The translations under genes were made by a program, and so were the position numbers. The notes below the pieces were generated by a model. That model saw only the letters and a program-made list of their open reading frames with translations. It was not told the origin of the DNA and did not search any database. Of a stretch of DNA of 64,000 nt, positions 1,694-60,991 are shown in pieces (the stretch's first letter is position 1; every line of letters begins with the position of its first letter). The stretch is from assembly GCA_964106915.2 (NCBI GenBank), contig OZ066916.1; one strand, 5' to 3'. The DNA comes from Podarcis gaigeae (taxonomy: Eukaryota).

Positions 1694-4600
1694 CGTATGT
1701 TATGTATAAATAATTTCTTTCTCTTGGAGACTAAGATAATGCATGATCATATCAGATGCCAACCTGAAATCTGGGTCAAATGAATTTAGAGATATTCCCG
1801 GAATTCTGAGCCATGACAGGTGAATGAAGATAGTTTATAACATTGTAGAGCTGCTTGAATCAAACATCTTGTTTTGTGACCATGGCATATTGCCTATGCA
1901 ACTAGTTTGCAGTTTTCATGACAGCAAAAAGGTTAAATATCTTCACTCCTTAGCACCGAGTTTCATTAATACCCATCTAGCAAATTGCAGATCTGGAGCC
2001 TTAATGTCTGTGGGCTTTGCCATCTTGCCAAAACGAGCTTTCTAGAAACACGTCATAGCTCTATGTGCCAGCTGAAGAATATTAATGATTATCACTACAT
2101 GTAAAACCAGCAGACAGAATCTGCTTTCTGTAGTATTCCAGTATCCCAGAGCTCTGTTTGTCTTTTCTTTTTCATTTCCTTAGCAAGCCTACAAAGTTAT
2201 ATAAACATAACTAATCCCCAGAGGACATGATGGAAAATTCAGTTTTATGCTGTTGGATTACATTAGAGCACAAAACTGAACTGTGTGTGACCAACAGTCA
2301 GTCAGGTGGACAAAAAAACCTGTGAAATTAAATAAACAGGAAGGTAGTATGGTACTATATAAAAAGGGTTGCTGGCAGATCAAGACGAAGGGCTATGAGC
2401 GTACCTTACAGGATTGGTGCTTCCAGATTGTTGGTATATTCAGGTGGGGTTCAATCACATGCCAGCAAATTCAGGGCTCCCAATTATAGTGGATTGGGAG
2501 GTCTTGTGCAACCTGCTTCCCCCAAAGACTGGATTTTTTTCAGTAAGGAAAGTGATGGGGAGATATACTGGAAAATGTGGAATAACACTGACTCTGATAC
2601 AACATCAGCTCCCCTCAAACAAATCAGGATGGATGCTAGTTATGCAGGATGTCTGAAAGCAACCACTTTGCCTAAGGTTATTCATGGCACATTCAGTTTA
2701 ACCATTGCTTCTTTGGGTTTCTTGCTTTCTCTACTTTGATTGGTAATAATGAAGGCTGTCCATCTGCTGTTCCTCATCTGGGACAGTGACTGTAATGTGC
2801 TGAGAAGTAAAAAGGGGAGGACACCAGAATGAGTTAGGAATAAAGTTGAAAGCTTTTGTTCTCAAACCGGCCTAGTGCTATACAGTAGTTAACATACCTT
2901 TTAATTATTCCTACCTTTTCTCTCTTTCATCTAAAAACAGAAAAGAATGAAGAAGAGGAACAAGAAGCTAAAAGAGAATTGAAGCGCAGTCTCAGCAGAA
3001 AGGTACGCAAAATGTATTCCATATCCCAGAGATTTCCAAACTGTGTGTCACACATGACACATTGGTGTGTCGACTGCTGTGTGTAGGTGTGTTGTGCGAA
3101 CGCTCCCCATGCTGGAACGGGAGCGGGTAGTCCACTGGTTTTCTAGGAAAACTGAATTACTGTGTCGTGGAATGATGCATGTCTAAATCAGTGTTTCCCA
3201 ACCGGTGTTCCGCGGCACACTAGTGTGCAGCGAGACGTTGCCTGGTGTGCCGTGGGAGGGAGGCGGGCGAGTCGGGCGGCGAGAGGCGGGGCGTGGCAAG
3301 GTCTTGGTTCGTGTGTATGAGCTGCGGGAGGAACTTAAAGTGTTTCTGACAAATGAGAGGTCAGATTACGCAAAGCTGCTTGCAAGTGATGAGTGGTGTG
3401 CAAGGCTGGCATACCTGGCAGATATATTTCATCATCTGAATGAACTGAACACACGAATGCAAGGCCGAAATGAAAACCTGCTTACAAGTACAGATAAAAT
3501 AAATAGATTCCGTTCAAAGGTGCAACTCTGGCATCAACACGTGGAAAGTGGCAATCTTGAAATGTTCACACTCACCAAGCAATGGCAAGGTGTTCACACT
3601 GCTGCACTGTGTGAGATAATAGGTAAACATTTAAAAACTCTCGAGGGGAAGTTGTCATTTTATTTCTCTTCAGTCTCCACTGAATGCCTTGACTGGGTTA
3701 GGGACCCTTATAGCTCAGCATCAGTTGGTGGACAGGACATGACTTTACAGGAGCAGGAGGAACTAACTGAACTGAGACAAAATCGTGGTTTCAAGCTAAG
3801 ATTTGCTGATCTACCTTTGGACAGTTTTTGGTTGGAAACTGCCAAGGAGTTCCCCCTTCTGGCAAACAAAGCTATTTTGACATTGCTCCCATTTTCCACT
3901 ACATATCTCTGTGAGTTGAGCTTTTCAAGCATGATTGCTATAAAAACTAAATACAGAGAGAGACTGAGAGCTGTTGACGAAGAGCTACGTGTGTGTCTTT
4001 CTTCGATTCCAGCCAGAATATCAGCTTTGTGTTCAGCCAAACAGGCCCAGGTTGCGCACTGAATAAAGTATTTTATAATTTTTCATATTTCTGTTTACTT
4101 ACTATTTCATAATAAAGTAATTATAAAATACTTTCTTTGTGTTTATTTGATTCCTATTAAAGAGAGTTACTTTATATATAGTCAATATAGGCACAGAGTT
4201 AATTTTTTAAACATTTTCTAATGGTGGTGTGCCTCAAGATTTTTTTCATGAAACAAGTGTGCCTTTGCCCAAAAAAGGTTGGGAAACACTGGTCTAAATA
4301 ATGTGTCACCAACATGAAAAGTTGGGTATCCTGATAACAAATTGGGTCCTGCTTATCTGCAGAGCGTGTCTTTTCCAACATTAGTTGGTTTGTTCACCTA
4401 GCCTTCTTTTACAGCTCAGTCTGAGACCAACAGTGGCTGAGCTGCAAGCAAGAAGAATCCTGCGTTTTAATGAGTATGTGGAAGTAACAGATTCTCCAGA
4501 TTATGATCGCCGTGCTGACAAGCCCTGGGCAAGGTTAACCCCTGCAGACAAGGCAAGAGACAAATATGGATTATAAATGCAACTTTGTTTCTGTATCTCA

Positions 4601-30100: not shown

Positions 30101-33100
30101 ACTGTTTCAGTGGGAAGTCTCTCTCAACCAAATTTCTTCATCTGCAAGATAACAATCATAAGCCTGATTCACACATCATTCTAATTCAAAGCATGACTTA
30201 GCATGAATGTGCAGGCTACTGGAGAGATTGTGTCTGCTTTGCTCCCCGCCCCCCGCCCCCGAGTTGTTTTGCTACTGTGCAATGCTGAGCTAAACCATAG
30301 TTTGGCTCAGCATGTTGTCCCAGCCTGGGCTTATTTTAGCTTTCTCCAGCATAACCACAAGCTGTAACCAAGCTGTCCTGTGGTTTATAACTCATGGTTT
30401 GTCCAGGAGAGTTAAGCCATGAACCTGGATTCAGATGACAAAGGGAAACTGGCTCATTGTGGCATATTCACATTATTTATATATTTTACGTTACAGATAA
30501 GTAGCCGTGTTGGTCTGCCATAGTCAAAACAAAAAAAATTCCTTCCAGTAGCACCTTAAAGACCAATTAAGTTAGTTCTTGGTATGAGCTTTCGTGTGCA
30601 TGCACACTTCTTCAGATACACTGAAACAGAAGTTACCAGACCCTTCTATATAGTGAGAAGGTGGGGAGGGGTATTACTCAGAAGGGTGGTGGGAATGGCT
30701 GATTGGCAGATAGCTGTGATGAGCCTGTTGACGACTCTTAACGACTGCAATAGGTCTTACAGGAAAAAGCAAGGGGTGAGAAGGTGAAAAATGGCTTTGT
30801 CATGTATAATGAGATAAGAATCCAATGTCTTTGTTCAGACCAGGTCTCTCCATGGTTTTAAGTTTGGTGATAAGTTGCAATTCAGCAGCTTCTCTTTCCA
30901 GTCTATTTCTGAAATTCCTTTGTAGTAAAACAGCTACTTTGAGATCTTGTATAGAATGTCCTGGGAGATTGAAGTGTTCTCCTACTGGTTTCTGTCTTGT
31001 GATTCCTGATGTCGGACACAAATACCCCTCCCCACCTTCTCACTATATAGAAGGGTCTGGTAACTTCTGTTTCAGTGTATCTGAAGAAGTGTGCATGCAC
31101 ACGAAAGCTCATACCAAGAACTAACTTAGTTGGTCTTTAAGGTGCTACTGGAAGGAATTTTTTTTGTTTTTTTATATATATTTTATAACAGTGATGTTGT
31201 CTCCCAGGTACTATATAAATTGCTTTTATAGCTCTCGTTCCTTTGTTATATTCAGATTATATTCAGTGTCCTTACTGCATGAGGTTTAATGAGGCTGCAG
31301 CAGAAAGGCACATCAATTTCTGTAAAGAACAAGCAGCCAGGCGTGCATTTGCTCCAGGTCAGAAAGGATCCAAAGCACCCCCTGTAAGTAATTTTATTTT
31401 ATTCAAGCCATTAGTCACATTTTTGTCCCCTCCTTCTTCCAGGGGCTATATAGAATAATAAAAACAAGGAGGAGCGCTGCCAAATGTATCTCCGTTAATT
31501 CTTTCACTTTCCCATGAATTCTGGAGAAGGGTTGCGGTTCAGTACTGGAGCACCTGCTTTGCATGCAGAAGGTCCCACATTCATTCCCTGGCATGTACAT
31601 CTGGAACTGGGAATATCACCTCCCTGAAACCCTAGAAAGCCTCTGCCAATCAGTGTAGGCAGTAATGAGTCATGGTCCATGCCTAAGCATATATTATATT
31701 ATGGTCAATGAATACTTGTTCATTGCAACATTATTTATTTTCTTCTAATTTTGCCACTTCACTCTAAAGGTTCTAGAGTACTCTTCTCCCATTAAAAGCT
31801 GAATGCCAAATGTTTCCAAATGTCACATTTTTTTGAGCTATAGAAAAGACTGATGGATGAATAAACCAGTCAAACCAGAATTTGCAAACAAAAAAAAACT
31901 CATAGGAAAATGTGCAGAAATATTTTAACCAACAGACTGGAAGGTTTTCACCTTTTTAAAAAATACATAATTTTTTTAGTCCCTGTAGGGTTGCTATAGG
32001 GGACGTGGGTGGCACTTTGGTCTAAACCCTGAGCCTCTCGGGCTTGCCAAATGGAAGGTCAGTGGTTCAAATCCCCACAACAGTGAGCTCCCATTGCTGT
32101 GTTCCAACTTTTGCCAACCTACAAGTTTGAAAACATACCAGTGCAAGTAGATGAATAGGTACCGCTGCGGCAGGAAAGTAAACGGCGTTTCTGTGCGCTC
32201 TGGCTTCCATCACTGTTATGTTGCACCAGAAGTGGTTTAGTCATGGTGGCCAAATGACCTGGAAAGTTGTCTGGACAAACATCAGCTCCCTTGGCCTGAA
32301 GCGAGATGAGCGTCACACCCATCACCTTTGACTGGACTTAACTGTCCAGGGGTCCTTTACCTGCCATAAAGCAATTTTTCTAAGGTTTTTTTCTCCTCCA
32401 GTTTGACTTGTTGGAAATTATGAGAGGTTTTGGGGAGAATCTAAGTACTCTAGCTAATACAGTGGTATCTCGGGTTAAGTACTTAATTCGTTCTGGAGGT
32501 CCGTTCTTAACCTGAAACTGTTCTTAACCTGAAGCACCACTTTAGCTAATGGGGCCTCCCGCTGCCGCCACGCCACCAGAGCACTATTTCTGTTCTCACC
32601 TTGAAGCAAAGTTCTTAACCCGAGGTACTATTTCTGGATTAGCGGAGTCTGTAACCTGAAACGTATGTAACCTCAAGTGTATGTAACCTGAGGTACCGCT
32701 GTACACAACTTCAGTTAGTGAAGGGCTAATGTGGTGTAGTGGATAGTGTTGGATCAGAGAAATGTTGGTTTGAATTCTGCTGCCCCACACTGCAGAATAT
32801 TTGGGTAGTCAGCCACTCTTTACCTAAACATCCTAGGATTGTTGAGAGGATAAACATATGATAGTCCCAAAGCTCCTTAAGCTTTTTGGATACAAATGTG
32901 ATAAATCAACTGTACTGCATAATGAATGTATGCTAAAACGTTCTTTATATATTTACTGCGTATTTTCCAGGGCAAACAAGCAACTCCCAAAAAAGAACCA
33001 ACCCTAACAAGTGCTGTGGGAACACTGCTTCAGAACAAGACACAGGAAGGCACTGATCCAAGCCAAGTAGTAATAGGTAAGTAGCAAAAATAACGTTGAA

Positions 33101-37724: not shown

Positions 37725-37760
<36 letters not shown>

Positions 37761-37762
<2 letters not shown>

Positions 37763-37924
37763 TTTCGTAGATTTTCACGGGTACAGGAATGCAGGTTTTG
37801 GTGTCCTCGGGTGTCTTCCCGTGTAAAAGTTGGGGTGTCTAGGCGATGACGAGTGAGACCTCGTCGAAACGTCGCCTAGACACCCCAACTTTTACACGGG
37901 AAGACACCCGAGGACACCAAAACC

Positions 37925-37929
<5 letters not shown>
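37761..37929 (-). mobile_element. Miniature Penelope-like inverted-repeat insertion (family B) in a (TA)n run
   Basis: 58-bp perfect inverted arms 37789-37846 / 37872-37929, a 28-nt one-sided tail 37761-37788, and a loop holding the 3' part of the hammerhead. The sequence matches the ends of the 58971-60046 element, and (TA)n lies on both flanks. Confidence 0.85.
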
Positions 37930-55051: not shown

Positions 55052-56369
55052 GTAAGTGCTCGGGTCCTTATAGCCCTGGAGGACGGCATGGAAATATCCT
55101 TGGGGGGGGAATGGTGATGGGGCCAGGCAGCAAATCTATCTATCTAAATAGGAAAAGAAGCTGTGCCTCCTCCTGTCTTAGGTTAGTGGGACTCGCTCTT
55201 TCTTTTTTACGTCCAGCCTGAACTTCTTCAAGGAGTTGTGTGGACGATCACGGGGGGGTGGCCGGCTCCGGGAGAAACTTCTGTTTCTTGGGCTGGAGGG
55301 GAAGTTTTGGTGTCTTGGAGGAACAAACTTTTGCCGTCGATGCTGAAGCGCTTTTTGGCGATCAGGCAACTAGTGATGAGCTGTAAGAAGAATTTGTCTG
55401 ATTTAGGGGAACTTGGCCTTCTTTTCTCCACTGTTGCTTCAAGGTGGCTTATATAGGGTACCCAGGCGGTCCTGGGTTGCAGTCCTGACCCCCTGTACTT
55501 GGTGTGAGTTACCAGTGACTTCGGCTGGAAGTGGTTTGTGCCCATTGCCTTGACTGTCAAGCTTTGCACCATGCGCATAGTAAGGGTGCGCAAGATTACA
55601 GCCCCCCTCCAACCTGCTCACACACTGAACGCAAAGTGGGCTTATTGCTGAGGAAACTTTCTGAGGCTTCGGCTTTGCCAGGCTTCCTTCCCTGAGTTAA
55701 AAGTGGACGGTCTGTAGTGATCATGAAATGAAGGCAGCAATATTATCCACACTTACTTAGGAGTTTGTCAGTTAAGGGGCGCCGAGGGAAATGTTCTGCC
55801 AGACTTCCATAACGTTTTGTTCACCTCGTATCGAACTAAGGGTCTGATTGTTTAAGTGGATGTGAACCCGAGTAGCATTTGGTTGGAAAAAAAACCTGTG
55901 TTAGCTTTTTAGTTTATTATTACAATCCTCATCCTCCTCTTCTTGTTATTAATGACATCTGCATGCTTCATAACATAGTTATTTGGGGGCATATTAAATT
56001 ACATCGTCTTAAACTGGCTGTCAAGGAAGAGCTGGCTATCTATACATGTGTGAAGCTGGGGTAGTCAACATGGTGGCCCGCGGTGCCTGCAAAGCTTCTG
56101 AGCTCCCCCCCCCCCTCACTATTCACCATGAGATTGCCAGGATGCTTCATCACATGTCCACTGTCAAGCCAGGATGCTTACCAAACCCCCTTAAAAAGGA
56201 GGAAGTTAGAACAGCGACACTCTTTCCCACTTCTTTAAGTTCTACAGTATGTACCTTTCAGGGCTCAGCTGAACAGAAAGCAAAGCAACCAAGAGGAGGG
56301 GAGGGGAGTGATCAGGGAAAGGTGGGGAATAGAGGGAAGGGGGTGGGGTGAGAAAACGGGGTGCCATAG

Positions 56370-56902: not shown

Positions 56903-59024
56903 GCCTCACTTTCTGTCTGTCAAAAGGAAGTGTCACAGGGGAGAGGTGAGAAAAGCATGGGCTCATCAATGTTGACAACTGCTGGTATTAGTGATTAGAA
57001 AACCCTTGTTCATCATTTCTTTATAACATCAGGGAAATCCAAAAAGAAGCAAACAAATATAATCTATTTTAATACTGGGTTCTAATTACACTGAATTGGA
57101 TCTAGTTAGAATCCAGTAATTAGAAGTATGTATTGTAGCATGATGATATTACTTTACCTGAACCTTTTATATAGGGAGAATCAATATAATTCAGATATGA
57201 AAAGCTATTTGAGGAAATTTTCATTTCTTCCCCATTTTTAAAAAAACTGGATTCTCTTCCTTACTTTTCCCTTTCACTTTATTCTCCTAGGGCCTAAATG
57301 GCTAAATAGAATGCTTATCAATTAATTAAGATCAATCTCAAATAGGTGATGAGTACTTAAATTGCAGATTTAAGATAGCTCCATTTTAATTTTAAAATCA
57401 TAACTGATCTATTACCTTAGACTTCTCTCTATTTTTAGAGTGTGTTTGATTTTTGAAGGAACATGATTCCTCAATCCAGGAATTGGGAAGCAAAATCAAA
57501 TAAGTTTGGGTGGGGAGAATTTCTTTTAAACTTAAATTTTATTGTTTATTTTATTTTTTTTTGTTTTTGTTTTAAATTTTATTGTTTATTATCCAGAAAA
57601 CAGTTTGTTGTGGAAGGGAAACAATAGGTCTGATCTAGATTAAAATACTGAAACTTGGTTTCCATTGAAATCAATATGAAAAGTTAGCAAGGGCTGAGTT
57701 AAATTGCATTCATTTCAACTAACATGGACCGTATCCAGCTCAGTGTTAAAGAAGAACTAAGTTTGAGTAAGCTGTTCCTGTAAATTTCTAAGTACCTGTA
57801 ACTAATTTCCTGTGTGCTTTGGAAGAGTAAGAAGTTTGAAGGCAGTTGTGCAAACCTGTTGTTTCCATTGCTACTGCATTTACTGTTAACAGCTCTCATT
57901 CTAAAAATGAAACAAAAACTTGAATTTGGAAATGAAGCATTACTTCCTTCGTGTCTCCTCACAATCTCTTCTCTATCCCACCTTACTGGTGTTTTAGAGG
58001 ATGCCCCTGTACTTTGCACACACAGTGTAGTGAGGCAAACCGTGGTGACTCCCGCTACGTCTGGGGTCACTGCAACTTCCCTGGATGGTACTGGGGTGGG
58101 ATGCCCCACAGCTGCCACCAGCGTGCCCAACCTTGCTGCTATCCTGCCCCACCCTGGTGTCATCCAGCTAAGCTGCACCACTTTCTGTGTCCATGAGAGT
58201 AGCTCTACCTCACTACACCAGCCAATACTGAAAAGGGTCCCTATTTTTTTCAGGGTGGGATTTTTCAAGTTCTCTACACTTTGATTATGGCAGAGGCAAT
58301 TAAAAAATATACTGTCCTGGTTCACACATCATCATAAGGCAAATGGTTGTTCTTGGGTACAGCTTCTGGTTAGTGAGGATAGAGCTTAACAATGAACCTG
58401 GGTTCAGACAACATGCTAAGACAAACCTTGGCTTAGCTGAGCATGTGCGAGAGTAAAAAATATCAGGGAGGAGCAAAGTTGCAGTGAGCTCCTTTCTGGA
58501 GACAGTACATTCATGAGGTCCTAGTAAACTATAGGTGAGCTTACCATGAACCAAGACTGTGTTTTTCTGGTACAGTATTTCAGATGGCAGGATGTTAGCT
58601 CCCTTTCTATACAGTCTTCCATAGACCCATGGCATAGCTCTGTTTTATAGTAATTATAGATATTTATGTAGACACTTGTGTATCCTTTAAGGGGTTTTTT
58701 AGGAGCCACGTATGAACTGGGACACTTACCAATTAATCTAATGTGCTTGAACCTCTTGTAAATGGAAGCTGCAGTGTTATTCATTTTATATGAAAAATCT
58801 CTTAGGCTTCTTCAATGCTATACCAGCTTCCTGGGAATAAGTCTGATGGGGAGTAAGCCTCAGTTGGGTTTACCTCTAGGCAGACCTGGAGAGGACTGGG
58901 CTGGTTATGGTTTGAAATAGTTAGACCCAGAATTGGGTGTGATCAAATATATATACGAAAGCATATATATATGCAGGTTTTGGTGTCCTCGGGTGTCTTC
59001 CCGTGTAAAAGTTGGGGTGTCTAG

Positions 59025-59062
59025 GCGACGTTTCGACGAGGTCTCACTCGTCATCTTCAGGC
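59025..59062 (-). ncRNA. Minimal hammerhead ribozyme motif (PLE family B, minus copy)
   Basis: Reverse complement of 59927-59964. Confidence 0.7.
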
Positions 59063-59926
59063 TGGTGCTTTCGGCTTCTTGTTACTGGAACAGAGCGGGA
59101 TCTCAATGTTTGAGTTCCTATAAATACTGTAGAGGGGGTGTGGTGTCTAGCCTCCAATGTTCTGGGCAGAGAGGAAGTTCCCAGGCTAGTGTGCCTTTTC
59201 TTCTTTTGTTCCTTAATTACTTGAGAGATACCTTGAGTGATTTCTTGAGTGATATCCTGAGTACCACTTAGGTGGGTCATTAGGTGTGGATTAGTTGCTA
59301 AAGTCTTTGTGTCTTGACCTCTTGAACTTTGTGAAGAGTTTTCCTGAGAAGATGGCTGTATTGCACTTAGTTGTGCTTTGGCTTGGCTTCGTGTATAGGG
59401 GCGAGCTGTGGTTTTGTGGCTTGTGTCAGCCAGATCTGTGTAGGGATTGCAGGGGGGGTGCAGCATCCGGAGGTGCCACCATGGATTGGCTACTGGATGG
59501 TGTCAGTAATTCATCTGTGGAGAGGGTCTAGGTCCCCTGCAATCCCTACACAGATCTGGCTGACACAAGCCACAAAACCACAGCTCGCCCCTATACACGA
59601 AGCCAAGCCAAAGCACAACTAAGTGCAATACAGCCATCTTCTCAGGAAAACTCTTCACAAAGTTCAAGAGGTCAAGACACAAAGACTTTAGCAACTAATC
59701 CACACCTAATGACCCACCTAAGTGGTACTCAGGATATCACTCAAGAAATCACTCAAGGTATCTCTCAAGTAATTAAGGAACAAAAGAAGAAAAGGCACAC
59801 TAGCCTGGGAACTTCCTCTCTGCCCAGAACATTGGAGGCTAGACACCACACCCCCTCTACAGTATTTATAGGAACTCAAACATTGAGATCCCGCTCTGTT
59901 CCAGTAACAAGAAGCCGAAAGCACCA

Positions 59927-59964
59927 GCCTGAAGATGACGAGTGAGACCTCGTCGAAACGTCGC
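59927..59964 (+). ncRNA. Minimal hammerhead ribozyme motif (PLE family B)
   Basis: GC-CUGAAGA-U-GACGAG-UGAGAC-CUCGUC-GAAA-CGUC-GC. It has the core boxes, a 6-bp stem II, palindromic ACGU at stem III and a GUC cleavage triplet, but only about 2 bp of stem I. Confidence 0.7.
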
Positions 59965-60991
59965 CTAGACACCCCAACTTTTACACGGGAAGACACCCGA
60001 GGACACCAAAACCTGCATTCCTGTACCCGTGAAAATCTACGAAAGCAAAGCATATATATATATATATATATATATCTACTAAAATGTGCTGAAGAATAAA
60101 ATGCAACTTTAAACCCACAAAAGGTTTTAACATACAATAAAGATATGGATAAAATTACTACAGTACAATAATATATTCAGAAAATCTGATCTGACAAACA
60201 AACAAAAAATATCCCAACCCAACACTTTTTGACCCCACAAAGGGTCTTCCTCGGTGTTCAATGAATTTGTGACACATTATTTGTCACCAAATTCCACATG
60301 GATTCAACATTCATAGGAAAAGTCTTTGAGTGTATTCTATTTGGATGAAAACATTAGGTTGGAATTACCCCTTTGACTTCTCTTCCTTTGATCAACTGGA
60401 ATGGCATCTGAAATCCTGCATGTTTTCCTTGCTTGTGACATCTGCATTTGAGAGTCTTGTAGGTGGTTGCATGAATACGTACAAATATACATCATGGAAA
60501 ATGTGCAGTATAAACAAGGCAACAAGAATCTGAGGCACTCTGGGAATTTTTGATTGGTAACAGCTTTTATTTCATAATGCTATGTGTACATGCGATTGTT
60601 GTAATCATGAGGTTACAGTCACTTGATAGCATGTGACTTGTAGGGATAATGTGGTTGAGAAGTTAGATAATAGAATTAGAGCTCTTTGAATGTATGATAC
60701 AGTGTTGGTGCTTAGTAATCTTACCTGCATACTTGGCTTCTTAGCTGTTATGAGTCAAGTAGTCATTAACAAGGAAATATATAAGATGTGTCTTATGACT
60801 TGCATTACACCAGTATTGTAATGTGTGCATGTTTAAGGGTTACTGGGAGCTACTTTGGTTCTAGCTTCCGAAAAATAGTGAAGTAGGACACCTTTATTTT
60901 CAGTTGTTCATTAGGCGTAACACCTGTGTTTTGTTTTCTGCTATCATGAGAATAACCTAAGCTATCTTCTCTTCAGTCTTTGATTACTTTA

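Follow-up and report, generated by a model that had tools for sequence, protein, structure and literature searches.

A 1-kb palindrome at positions 58971–60046 of a 64,000-nucleotide stretch of the Podarcis gaigeae genome (assembly GCA_964106915.2, contig OZ066916.1; the whole stretch is called the window below) consists of two 5′-truncated copies of a young, probably Poseidon-type Penelope-like element (PLE), which lie head to head and were probably produced in a single insertion by twin priming. One of the two copies carries a short 3′ tail and the other does not, and pairs with one tail likely mean that the element copies one RNA twice, once per side of the cut. The preliminary description of the window had taken the palindrome for inverted Penelope-like ends with minimal hammerheads, which our analysis bears out. 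The locus itself is an ordinary member of its kind, and the value of the case lies in family-wide rules.

The palindrome and its source element

Self-comparison returned the geometry first described: the intervals 58971–59455 and 59534–60018 are exact reverse complements (485 nt, 100% identity) with 78 nt between them. The outer ends are asymmetric, the right arm continuing into a 30-nt tail (60017–60046) that the left arm lacks. The parts of the palindrome and of its target are listed below; unit positions run along the 2,965-bp unit of the element, and positions with a plus sign are counted from the start of its open reading frame (ORF).

58971–59533 (−): tail-less arm, a 563-bp 5′-truncated PLE copy (unit positions 2488–3049, 99.6% match) with its 3′ end at ORF position +82/+84
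59456–59533 (−): 78-bp ‘spacer’, the unpaired 5′ part of the longer (tail-less) arm, from the C-terminal coding region of the ORF
59534–60046 (+): tailed arm, a 513-bp 5′-truncated PLE copy (unit positions 2565–3077, 100% match) ending at ORF +112
60017–60046 (+): 30-nt tail, ORF +83 to +112, on the 59534–60046 arm only
58958–58972 (+): left copy of the target-site duplication, 15 bp (13 bp if the last AT is assigned to the element), equal to 60047–60061
60047–60061 (+): right copy of the target-site duplication, continuing into (AT)12 up to 60075
58954–58962 (+): 9-nt stub within an AT run, identical to the final bases of the tail (from a BLAST of the full-length copy)

The spacer belongs to the left arm, whose longer 5′ portion it is, and has no foreign origin; its final 4–5 nt are a junction insertion or one mismatch. 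The 15-bp duplication takes in part of the stub already present in the AT run, and this stub is likely left from priming that took place earlier or was aborted. A telomerase-like repeat addition was considered for the doubled AAAGC at 60047 and discarded, since the tail-plus-AAAGC end at this locus is unique in the genome and belongs to the target duplication.

Perfect arms are what an assembly error or a fold-back chimera would also produce, a concern already raised in the preliminary description, and no listed contig piece spanned the arm junction, in output that consisted mostly of other repeats. We nevertheless assign such an artefact a negligible probability, because the tail is present on one arm only, the flanks differ and carry the 15-bp duplication, 101 similar structures with varied junctions were found in the census described below, and two more lie in the window. 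The insertion had also been called very recent, and this is supported both by the sampled segments of the family, which show 200 differences from the full-length copy over 141,136 aligned bases, and by the state of the site in a related species. There, a sequencing run (X4) gave one 5,892-letter contig on the right flank, with 4,960 further letters leftward that do not fit the arm; since the family is deep in the same run and this contig lacks the arm, the site appears to be empty in that species. A contig from a second individual (X3) begins 39 letters before 60085 and fits either a filled allele with stutter or an allele with the stub only. The insertion is probably neutral.

Genome matches extend the palindrome sequence upstream into a frame with reverse transcriptase (RT) and GIY-YIG domains. 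The full-length copy (L066) has a 2,965-bp unit with an intact 991-aa ORF, which begins at helix II of the hammerhead motif, its ATG standing at the start of that helix, and ends 11 nt into the next unit. At L066:2539–5514 the ORF spans the whole 2,965-bp unit and overlaps itself: the hammerhead of the next unit has the ORF's stop codon in its helix II loop, and about 170 low-complexity residues follow the nuclease. Pfam matches are RVT_1 (E 7e-16) and GIY-YIG (E 7e-4, under the curated cut-off), with GIY at 705 and YIG at 718. A single ORF with RT and, at the C terminus, a GIY-YIG nuclease, tandem or partial-tandem units forming pseudo-long terminal repeats (pLTRs; seen in L066 and in 192 exact tail-to-ORF read-throughs in the genome, several of them spaced 2,965 bp) and inverted 5′-truncated copies with a 30–40-nt tail at one end are the traits of endonuclease-bearing (EN+) PLEs, and the family has them. 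The closest protein, at 94% over 697 aa, comes from Podarcis muralis, and an Anolis protein stands at 45%. Judged by its sequence, the young family is probably a Poseidon-type PLE: the C-terminal endonuclease and the 45% identity with Anolis favour Poseidon, the accompanying protein tree having been built without named Poseidon, Neptune or Naiad references. In that tree the lacertid element groups with unnamed proteins and proteins of a beetle (Diabrotica), and the Anolis proteins group with other beetle proteins. A single lizard clade was rejected by the approximately unbiased (AU) test (p 8e-6; a quick tree of 44 rows, with the group named after the tree was viewed), and the split may reflect separate transfers from insects or old paralogous lineages.

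The family is abundant. Exact tail 28-mers number 4,313 in the genome and exact tail-less ends running into AT number 3,499, so that exact ends total at least 7,812; reversed control patterns had no match. We rejected 485 bp as a family pLTR length; four matches did share a start base, in a search that favours rare junction words, and the scattered 5′ ends of the unselected sample rule it out. Two short tandem arrays of the region from the hammerhead to the ORF start, with periods of 167 and 172 bp, are retrozyme-like (G000:C17:24646249–24647448 and C17:53764896–53765270), and a giant head-to-head pair of tandem trimers, ~17 kb in all, has three full units per strand facing apart (G000:C17:47241585–47256051).

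Head-to-head pairs and the route of insertion

The census on which the following counts rest covers 108 stretches of contig 1, anchored on exact end patterns. Of its 233 segments, 202 lie in 101 head-to-head pairs, which by sequence comprise 91 mixed pairs with one tailed and one tail-less arm, 4 two-tailed, 4 tail-less and 2 that are unclassified owing to an interrupted arm. Exactly one tail is therefore present in 91 of the 99 classifiable pairs. Coordinate lists agree. The matches listed extend to 23.5 Mb on contig 1 and comprise 100 tailed ends with 75 tail-less ones; adjacent ends among them form 70 head-to-head pairs, 64 of which are mixed (35 expected), and in the stretch sampled from both end types the figure is 72 of 80 (40 expected, p 5e-14). 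The 3′ ends are fixed and binary, with 119 of the 233 segments ending at +112 (42 of which continue to +115–118) and 102 at +84, the latter being +82 plus an AT shared with the target. The 5′ ends are scattered.

The lengths and variants of the arms bear on how the pairs arise. The tailed arm is the shorter one in 63 of the 91 mixed pairs, and either arm may be the longer, by up to 2.3 kb. Arms within 35 nt of each other make up 39 of the 91 pairs, compared with a mean of 7.3 and a maximum of 19 in 10,000 shuffles; in these near-equal pairs the tail-less arm leads 33:5, mostly by 1–21 nt and at most by 29 nt, and when arms must exceed 135 nt the lead is still 19:2. Fourteen substitutions occur exactly twice in the sample, 10 of them in the two arms of a single pair (0.08 expected); a 12-bp deletion is shared in the same manner. 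The two arms would then have a common template, unless conversion has homogenised them. Junctions free of inserts show microhomology of at least 2 nt in 35 of 64 cases against 13% in simulation, although this count was taken from BLAST ends and may be slightly high. All 15 junction inserts of at least 8 nt are templated from the element or from nearby. Four of 99 pairs, those in a target other than pure AT, show target duplications of 9, 12, 14 and 16 bp.

In the twin-priming scheme that we favour, the GIY-YIG nuclease would nick both strands of an (AT)n run ~12–16 bp apart, as the duplications suggest. Within the RNA, each 3′ end would then prime RT at a site of its own, +82 in the one case and +112/+115 in the second; the positions are observed, and the sites adjoin A, AU or AUAU that could pair with the primer. 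As the shared private variants suggest, both cDNAs would be copied from one RNA molecule or from one source locus, probably by two coupled subunits of which the +82 enzyme is ahead, its lead limited to the 30-nt spacing; this coupling, read from arm lengths, is the weakest step. Finally, the two unfinished cDNA ends may be joined by host microhomology-mediated repair with templated inserts, a pathway proposed from the observed junctions. Two priming events are needed because the shorter, tailed arm cannot be a plain copy of the longer one. In a stronger version, twin priming would be the default, programmed route of PLE insertion: a dimer would hold both nicked strands on one RNA at fixed sites 30 nt apart, with the two RTs moving in train along a template left uncleaved and the trailing RT displacing the cDNA of the leader. 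We advance this version tentatively, as a possibility that falls somewhat short of being probable. If true, the 30-nt tail would be the spacing of two active sites, and every lizard genome would hold thousands of perfect palindromes made in this way.

A number of observations weigh against twin priming or limit its reach. The anchoring on exact patterns under-samples old or odd ends, and three listed clusters beyond 31 Mb were left out of the census; within it, 31 of 233 segments are unpaired and 8 of the 99 classifiable pairs break the one-tail rule, 2 of these resembling nested pseudo-pairs. The 52 unequal pairs, to which the present locus belongs with its 78-nt difference, show no length bias (30:22, p 0.33). 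Twenty-four rare differences are confined to a single arm, and a few pairs are discordant at sites of recurrent variation, for example with 2535G in just one of the arms. Gene conversion between arms could likewise yield the shared variants, and near-equal arms with loops of 1–30 nt are equally expected from fold-back synthesis. The start sites reported by Frangieh et al. are alike on both strands, which fits a symmetric target and is no test of pairing. The twin-priming reading is drawn from sequence.

Two other routes to such pairs were weighed. In the first, one cDNA, usually that from +82, folds back and copies itself, and a short cDNA primed on the other flank anneals to it and supplies or omits the tail. 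Shared private variants, a near-equal class with 1–30-nt loops and the one-tail rule would all follow. This route is a serious competitor, though we consider it unlikely, as 3 of the 39 near-equal junctions have loops of 1–2 nt, too tight for a hairpin, and it offers no reason for a tail-less lead of 33:5 that is confined to the near-equal class and to at most 29 nt. The second is the published self-priming or hairpin model, in which hairpin DNA forms first, possibly on an antisense template, and the endonuclease, in resolving it, leaves one of the two ends tailed (PMC3846280; PMC8557442). This model, too, predicts that the arms lie head to head, have variants in common and carry a tail on one side, yet we find it very improbable for this family: fixed 3′ ends combined with scattered 5′ ends point to synthesis that starts from the 3′ ends with sense RNA as template, the sites at which RT of the anole element begins in vitro (PMC11167929) agree with both end types, and the longer arm may be either of the two, by as much as 2.3 kb. 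Twin priming is in our view the better account of these features.

The targets show some regularities of their own. AT runs at element ends in the contig-1 census are most often near 22 nt long, with a second maximum near 44, and the shorter run of a pair measures 19–26 nt in 50 of 89 pairs, exceeding the 9–16-bp duplications; slippage, the addition of repeats or a preference for such targets may account for these long runs. A search of paralogous repeats for empty sites, made to tell added from pre-existing AT runs, yielded self or nested matches only. Pairs are often adjacent with one AT run in common (contig 1, e.g. L093, L098 and L100), so that older ends seem to offer their AT runs as targets to new insertions.

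A second PLE family in the same genome has one full tail in 14 of 15 pairs and two tails in none (30 loci, read by eye). One of its head-to-head pairs lies in the window at 30526–31170, with 150-bp arms, one mismatch and one tail. Its hammerhead has a 4-bp helix I, and its core occurs in 11,067 exact copies in the genome.

Hammerhead motifs, probable promoters and probable host gene

Both arms of the palindrome carry a promoter-like element and a hammerhead motif, and the window holds one further, miniature pair of the same family:

59863–59870 (+): putative promoter element TATTTATA, at −72 from the ORF start, with a mirror copy at 59119–59126 (−)
59927–59964 (+): minimal hammerhead motif, with core 59929–59935, 6-bp helix II, palindromic ACGU helix III and 2-bp helix I
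59025–59062 (−): mirror hammerhead motif, in the tail-less arm
37760–37929 (both strands): miniature head-to-head pair between AT runs, with a tailed arm of 87 nt on the − strand and a tail-less arm of 85 nt on the + strand

The CUGAAGA core begins at 59929 (+) and 59054 (−), 59 nt beyond the TATA element in each arm, in line with the roughly 60 nt first described. TATTTATA is probably a promoter element. The 5′ ends of family members cluster from about −46 to 0 (44 of 231, compared with 19 in the 100 nt upstream) with a peak at −5; the cluster begins ~25 nt beyond TATTTATA, which supports a putative transcription start near −42.

The motif reads CUGAAGA-U-GACGAG/CUCGUC-GAAAC-GUC, with a predicted cut after 59962 (+), and both the ORF start (ATG at 59935) and the stop codon of the upstream unit (59943–59945) fall within it. 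Helix II folds in computation. The CUGANGA core, GAAA, NUH, helix II and palindromic helix III of minimal PLE hammerheads are all present, and helix I has 2 bp in place of the usual 4–5 bp. Rfam gives no hammerhead match, neither at the gathering score nor at E ≤ 10, so calling the motif a ribozyme depends on its fit to the minimal descriptor of PMC4209133. The motif is identical in 171 of 186 sampled segments, and its core has 6,685 exact copies in the genome.

Routine cleavage by the hammerhead has left no genomic trace: 2 of 231 5′ ends, and possibly also the copy at 37.8 kb, lie at the predicted cut, and on this count we rejected hammerhead-cut RNA as a routine template. The tailed arm of that copy starts at +27 with 2-nt microhomology and could begin at the predicted cut (+29). 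An intron whose splicing would rebuild helix I, as in D. virilis, was sought by eye, and no plausible donor or pyrimidine tract was seen. Minimal hammerheads have no activity as monomers in vitro (PMC4209133), and the anole hammerhead requires protein and is dispensable for insertion (PMC11167929). The hammerheads here would be passengers, locked in duplex within any host read-through RNA, in which the antisense arm would be made first and pair with the sense motif.

The preliminary description expected a transcript crossing the palindrome to fold into long double-stranded RNA (dsRNA) and proposed that such copies could trigger silencing of their own family; an effect on the host gene may be added, and both are compatible with twin priming. 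The folding part holds in prediction, with a single hairpin of 507 pairs at about −1034 kcal/mol for the read-through RNA. Stems reach at least 300 bp in 54 of the 101 sampled pairs, and rotifer PLEs draw antisense small RNAs (PMC3846280). A role as trigger is nonetheless distinctly unlikely. The TATA elements of the arms face outward, so the hairpin RNA could arise from host read-through only, and the family has grown to at least 7,800 exact ends in near-identical copies while forming palindromes at most insertions. The locus is also in no way marked out: inverted pLTRs with a one-sided tail have been published (PMC3846280, PMC8557442), the median stem is 318 bp, and with 38 of 101 pairs having stems of at least 485 bp the locus must be counted as ordinary.

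The palindrome likely lies within intron 1 of a syntaxin gene, upstream of its coding exon. A 288-aa syntaxin ORF without a membrane anchor occupies 64505–65368 (+), just beyond the window, with an acceptor-like AG at 64495–64496 ahead of it, and a CpG island with a GTAAGT donor is located near 55052. A deep contig starting at the acceptor position 64496, from one run that we guess to be RNA from a relative, is a single weak hint in the same direction. The gene is probably STX11, a name that depends on synteny with its upstream neighbour, presumably SF3B5. Elsewhere in the window, the 291-aa open frame at 3187–4062 presumably resembles the C-terminal part of a hAT-type transposase.

Comparison with known systems

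The architecture itself is already known. Published EN+ Penelope/Poseidon units have an inverted pLTR with a one-sided 30–40-nt tail, and they resemble the present pairs in their head-to-head 5′-truncated copies, one-end tail, short target duplication, AT-rich targets and TATA within the pLTR (PMC3846280, PMC8557442). In these accounts the tail is optional or often one-sided, self-priming or nuclease resolution is invoked, and the accessible parts, unlike the present census, do not count how tails pair, how long the arms are or which variants they share. The origin of inverted ends and one-sided tails is named as an open question in PMC8557442 and PMC11167929. What the census adds is a set of countable rules: one tail per pair, a shared template and a lead of at most about 30 nt. 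The hammerheads also follow the minimal type-I motifs of PLEs (PMC4209133) in their core, the extra base before helix II, G10.1–C11.1, the 6-bp helix II and the palindromic, loopless helix III; the 2-bp helix I differs from the typical 4–5 bp and has its counterpart, within the accessible part of that paper, only in the D. virilis variant. The same paper already noted dual motifs of metazoan PLEs on opposite strands 100–700 bp apart, as here.

The closest biochemical system is PAc, the Poseidon element of Anolis carolinensis (PMC11167929). Its protein cuts and extends both strands in vitro and prefers AT-rich DNA, a dimer is predicted, and RT has two internal start positions, between which the tail lies; one of them is 111–118 nt into the ORF, which matches the tail end at +112/+115 in Podarcis. 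In both elements the ORF starts from helix II of the hammerhead and the tail equals the distance between the two RT start sites. The Podarcis ORF differs in its ~170 extra low-complexity residues and in its stop inside the next unit's hammerhead; it shares 45% identity with an Anolis protein that is probably PAc and forms no single clade with the Anolis proteins. The accessible text on PAc draws no connection from this pair of start sites to the arms of inverted insertions. A literature search, with subscription papers and the supplementary figures of PMC11167929 outside its scope, turned up no paper that connects Penelope elements to twin priming or counts tail pairing, and the accessible part of 10.64898/2026.07.22.740005 holds nothing on Penelope twin priming. 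With the rules reported here, the PLE question comes down to a single experiment, for which an anole in vitro system already exists and the family supplies an intact 991-aa source ORF. At a pairing rate of 87%, the exact ends, at least 7,812 in number, extrapolate to ~3,400 near-perfect palindromes in this genome, which thus offers a vertebrate in which the stability of palindromes and the tolerance of dsRNA could be studied under natural conditions.

The nearest analogy to the proposed route is the twin priming of L1 (10.1101/2024.08.27.596794), where both nicks prime on one RNA, the ends are joined by microcomplementarity and the lengths of the two products correlate, features that the proposed route would share. 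The 10 of 14 shared doubletons fit the single shared RNA of L1, and fold-back or conversion would give the same. L1 twin priming is a minority route with a variable internal second site, and its cDNAs barely overlap, leaving a non-overlapping inverted segment. In the Podarcis PLE, in contrast, the arms overlap fully and the 3′ ends are fixed: twin priming would be the default route (202 of 233 segments), with sites 30 nt apart, such that the same stretch is copied twice and a palindrome results.

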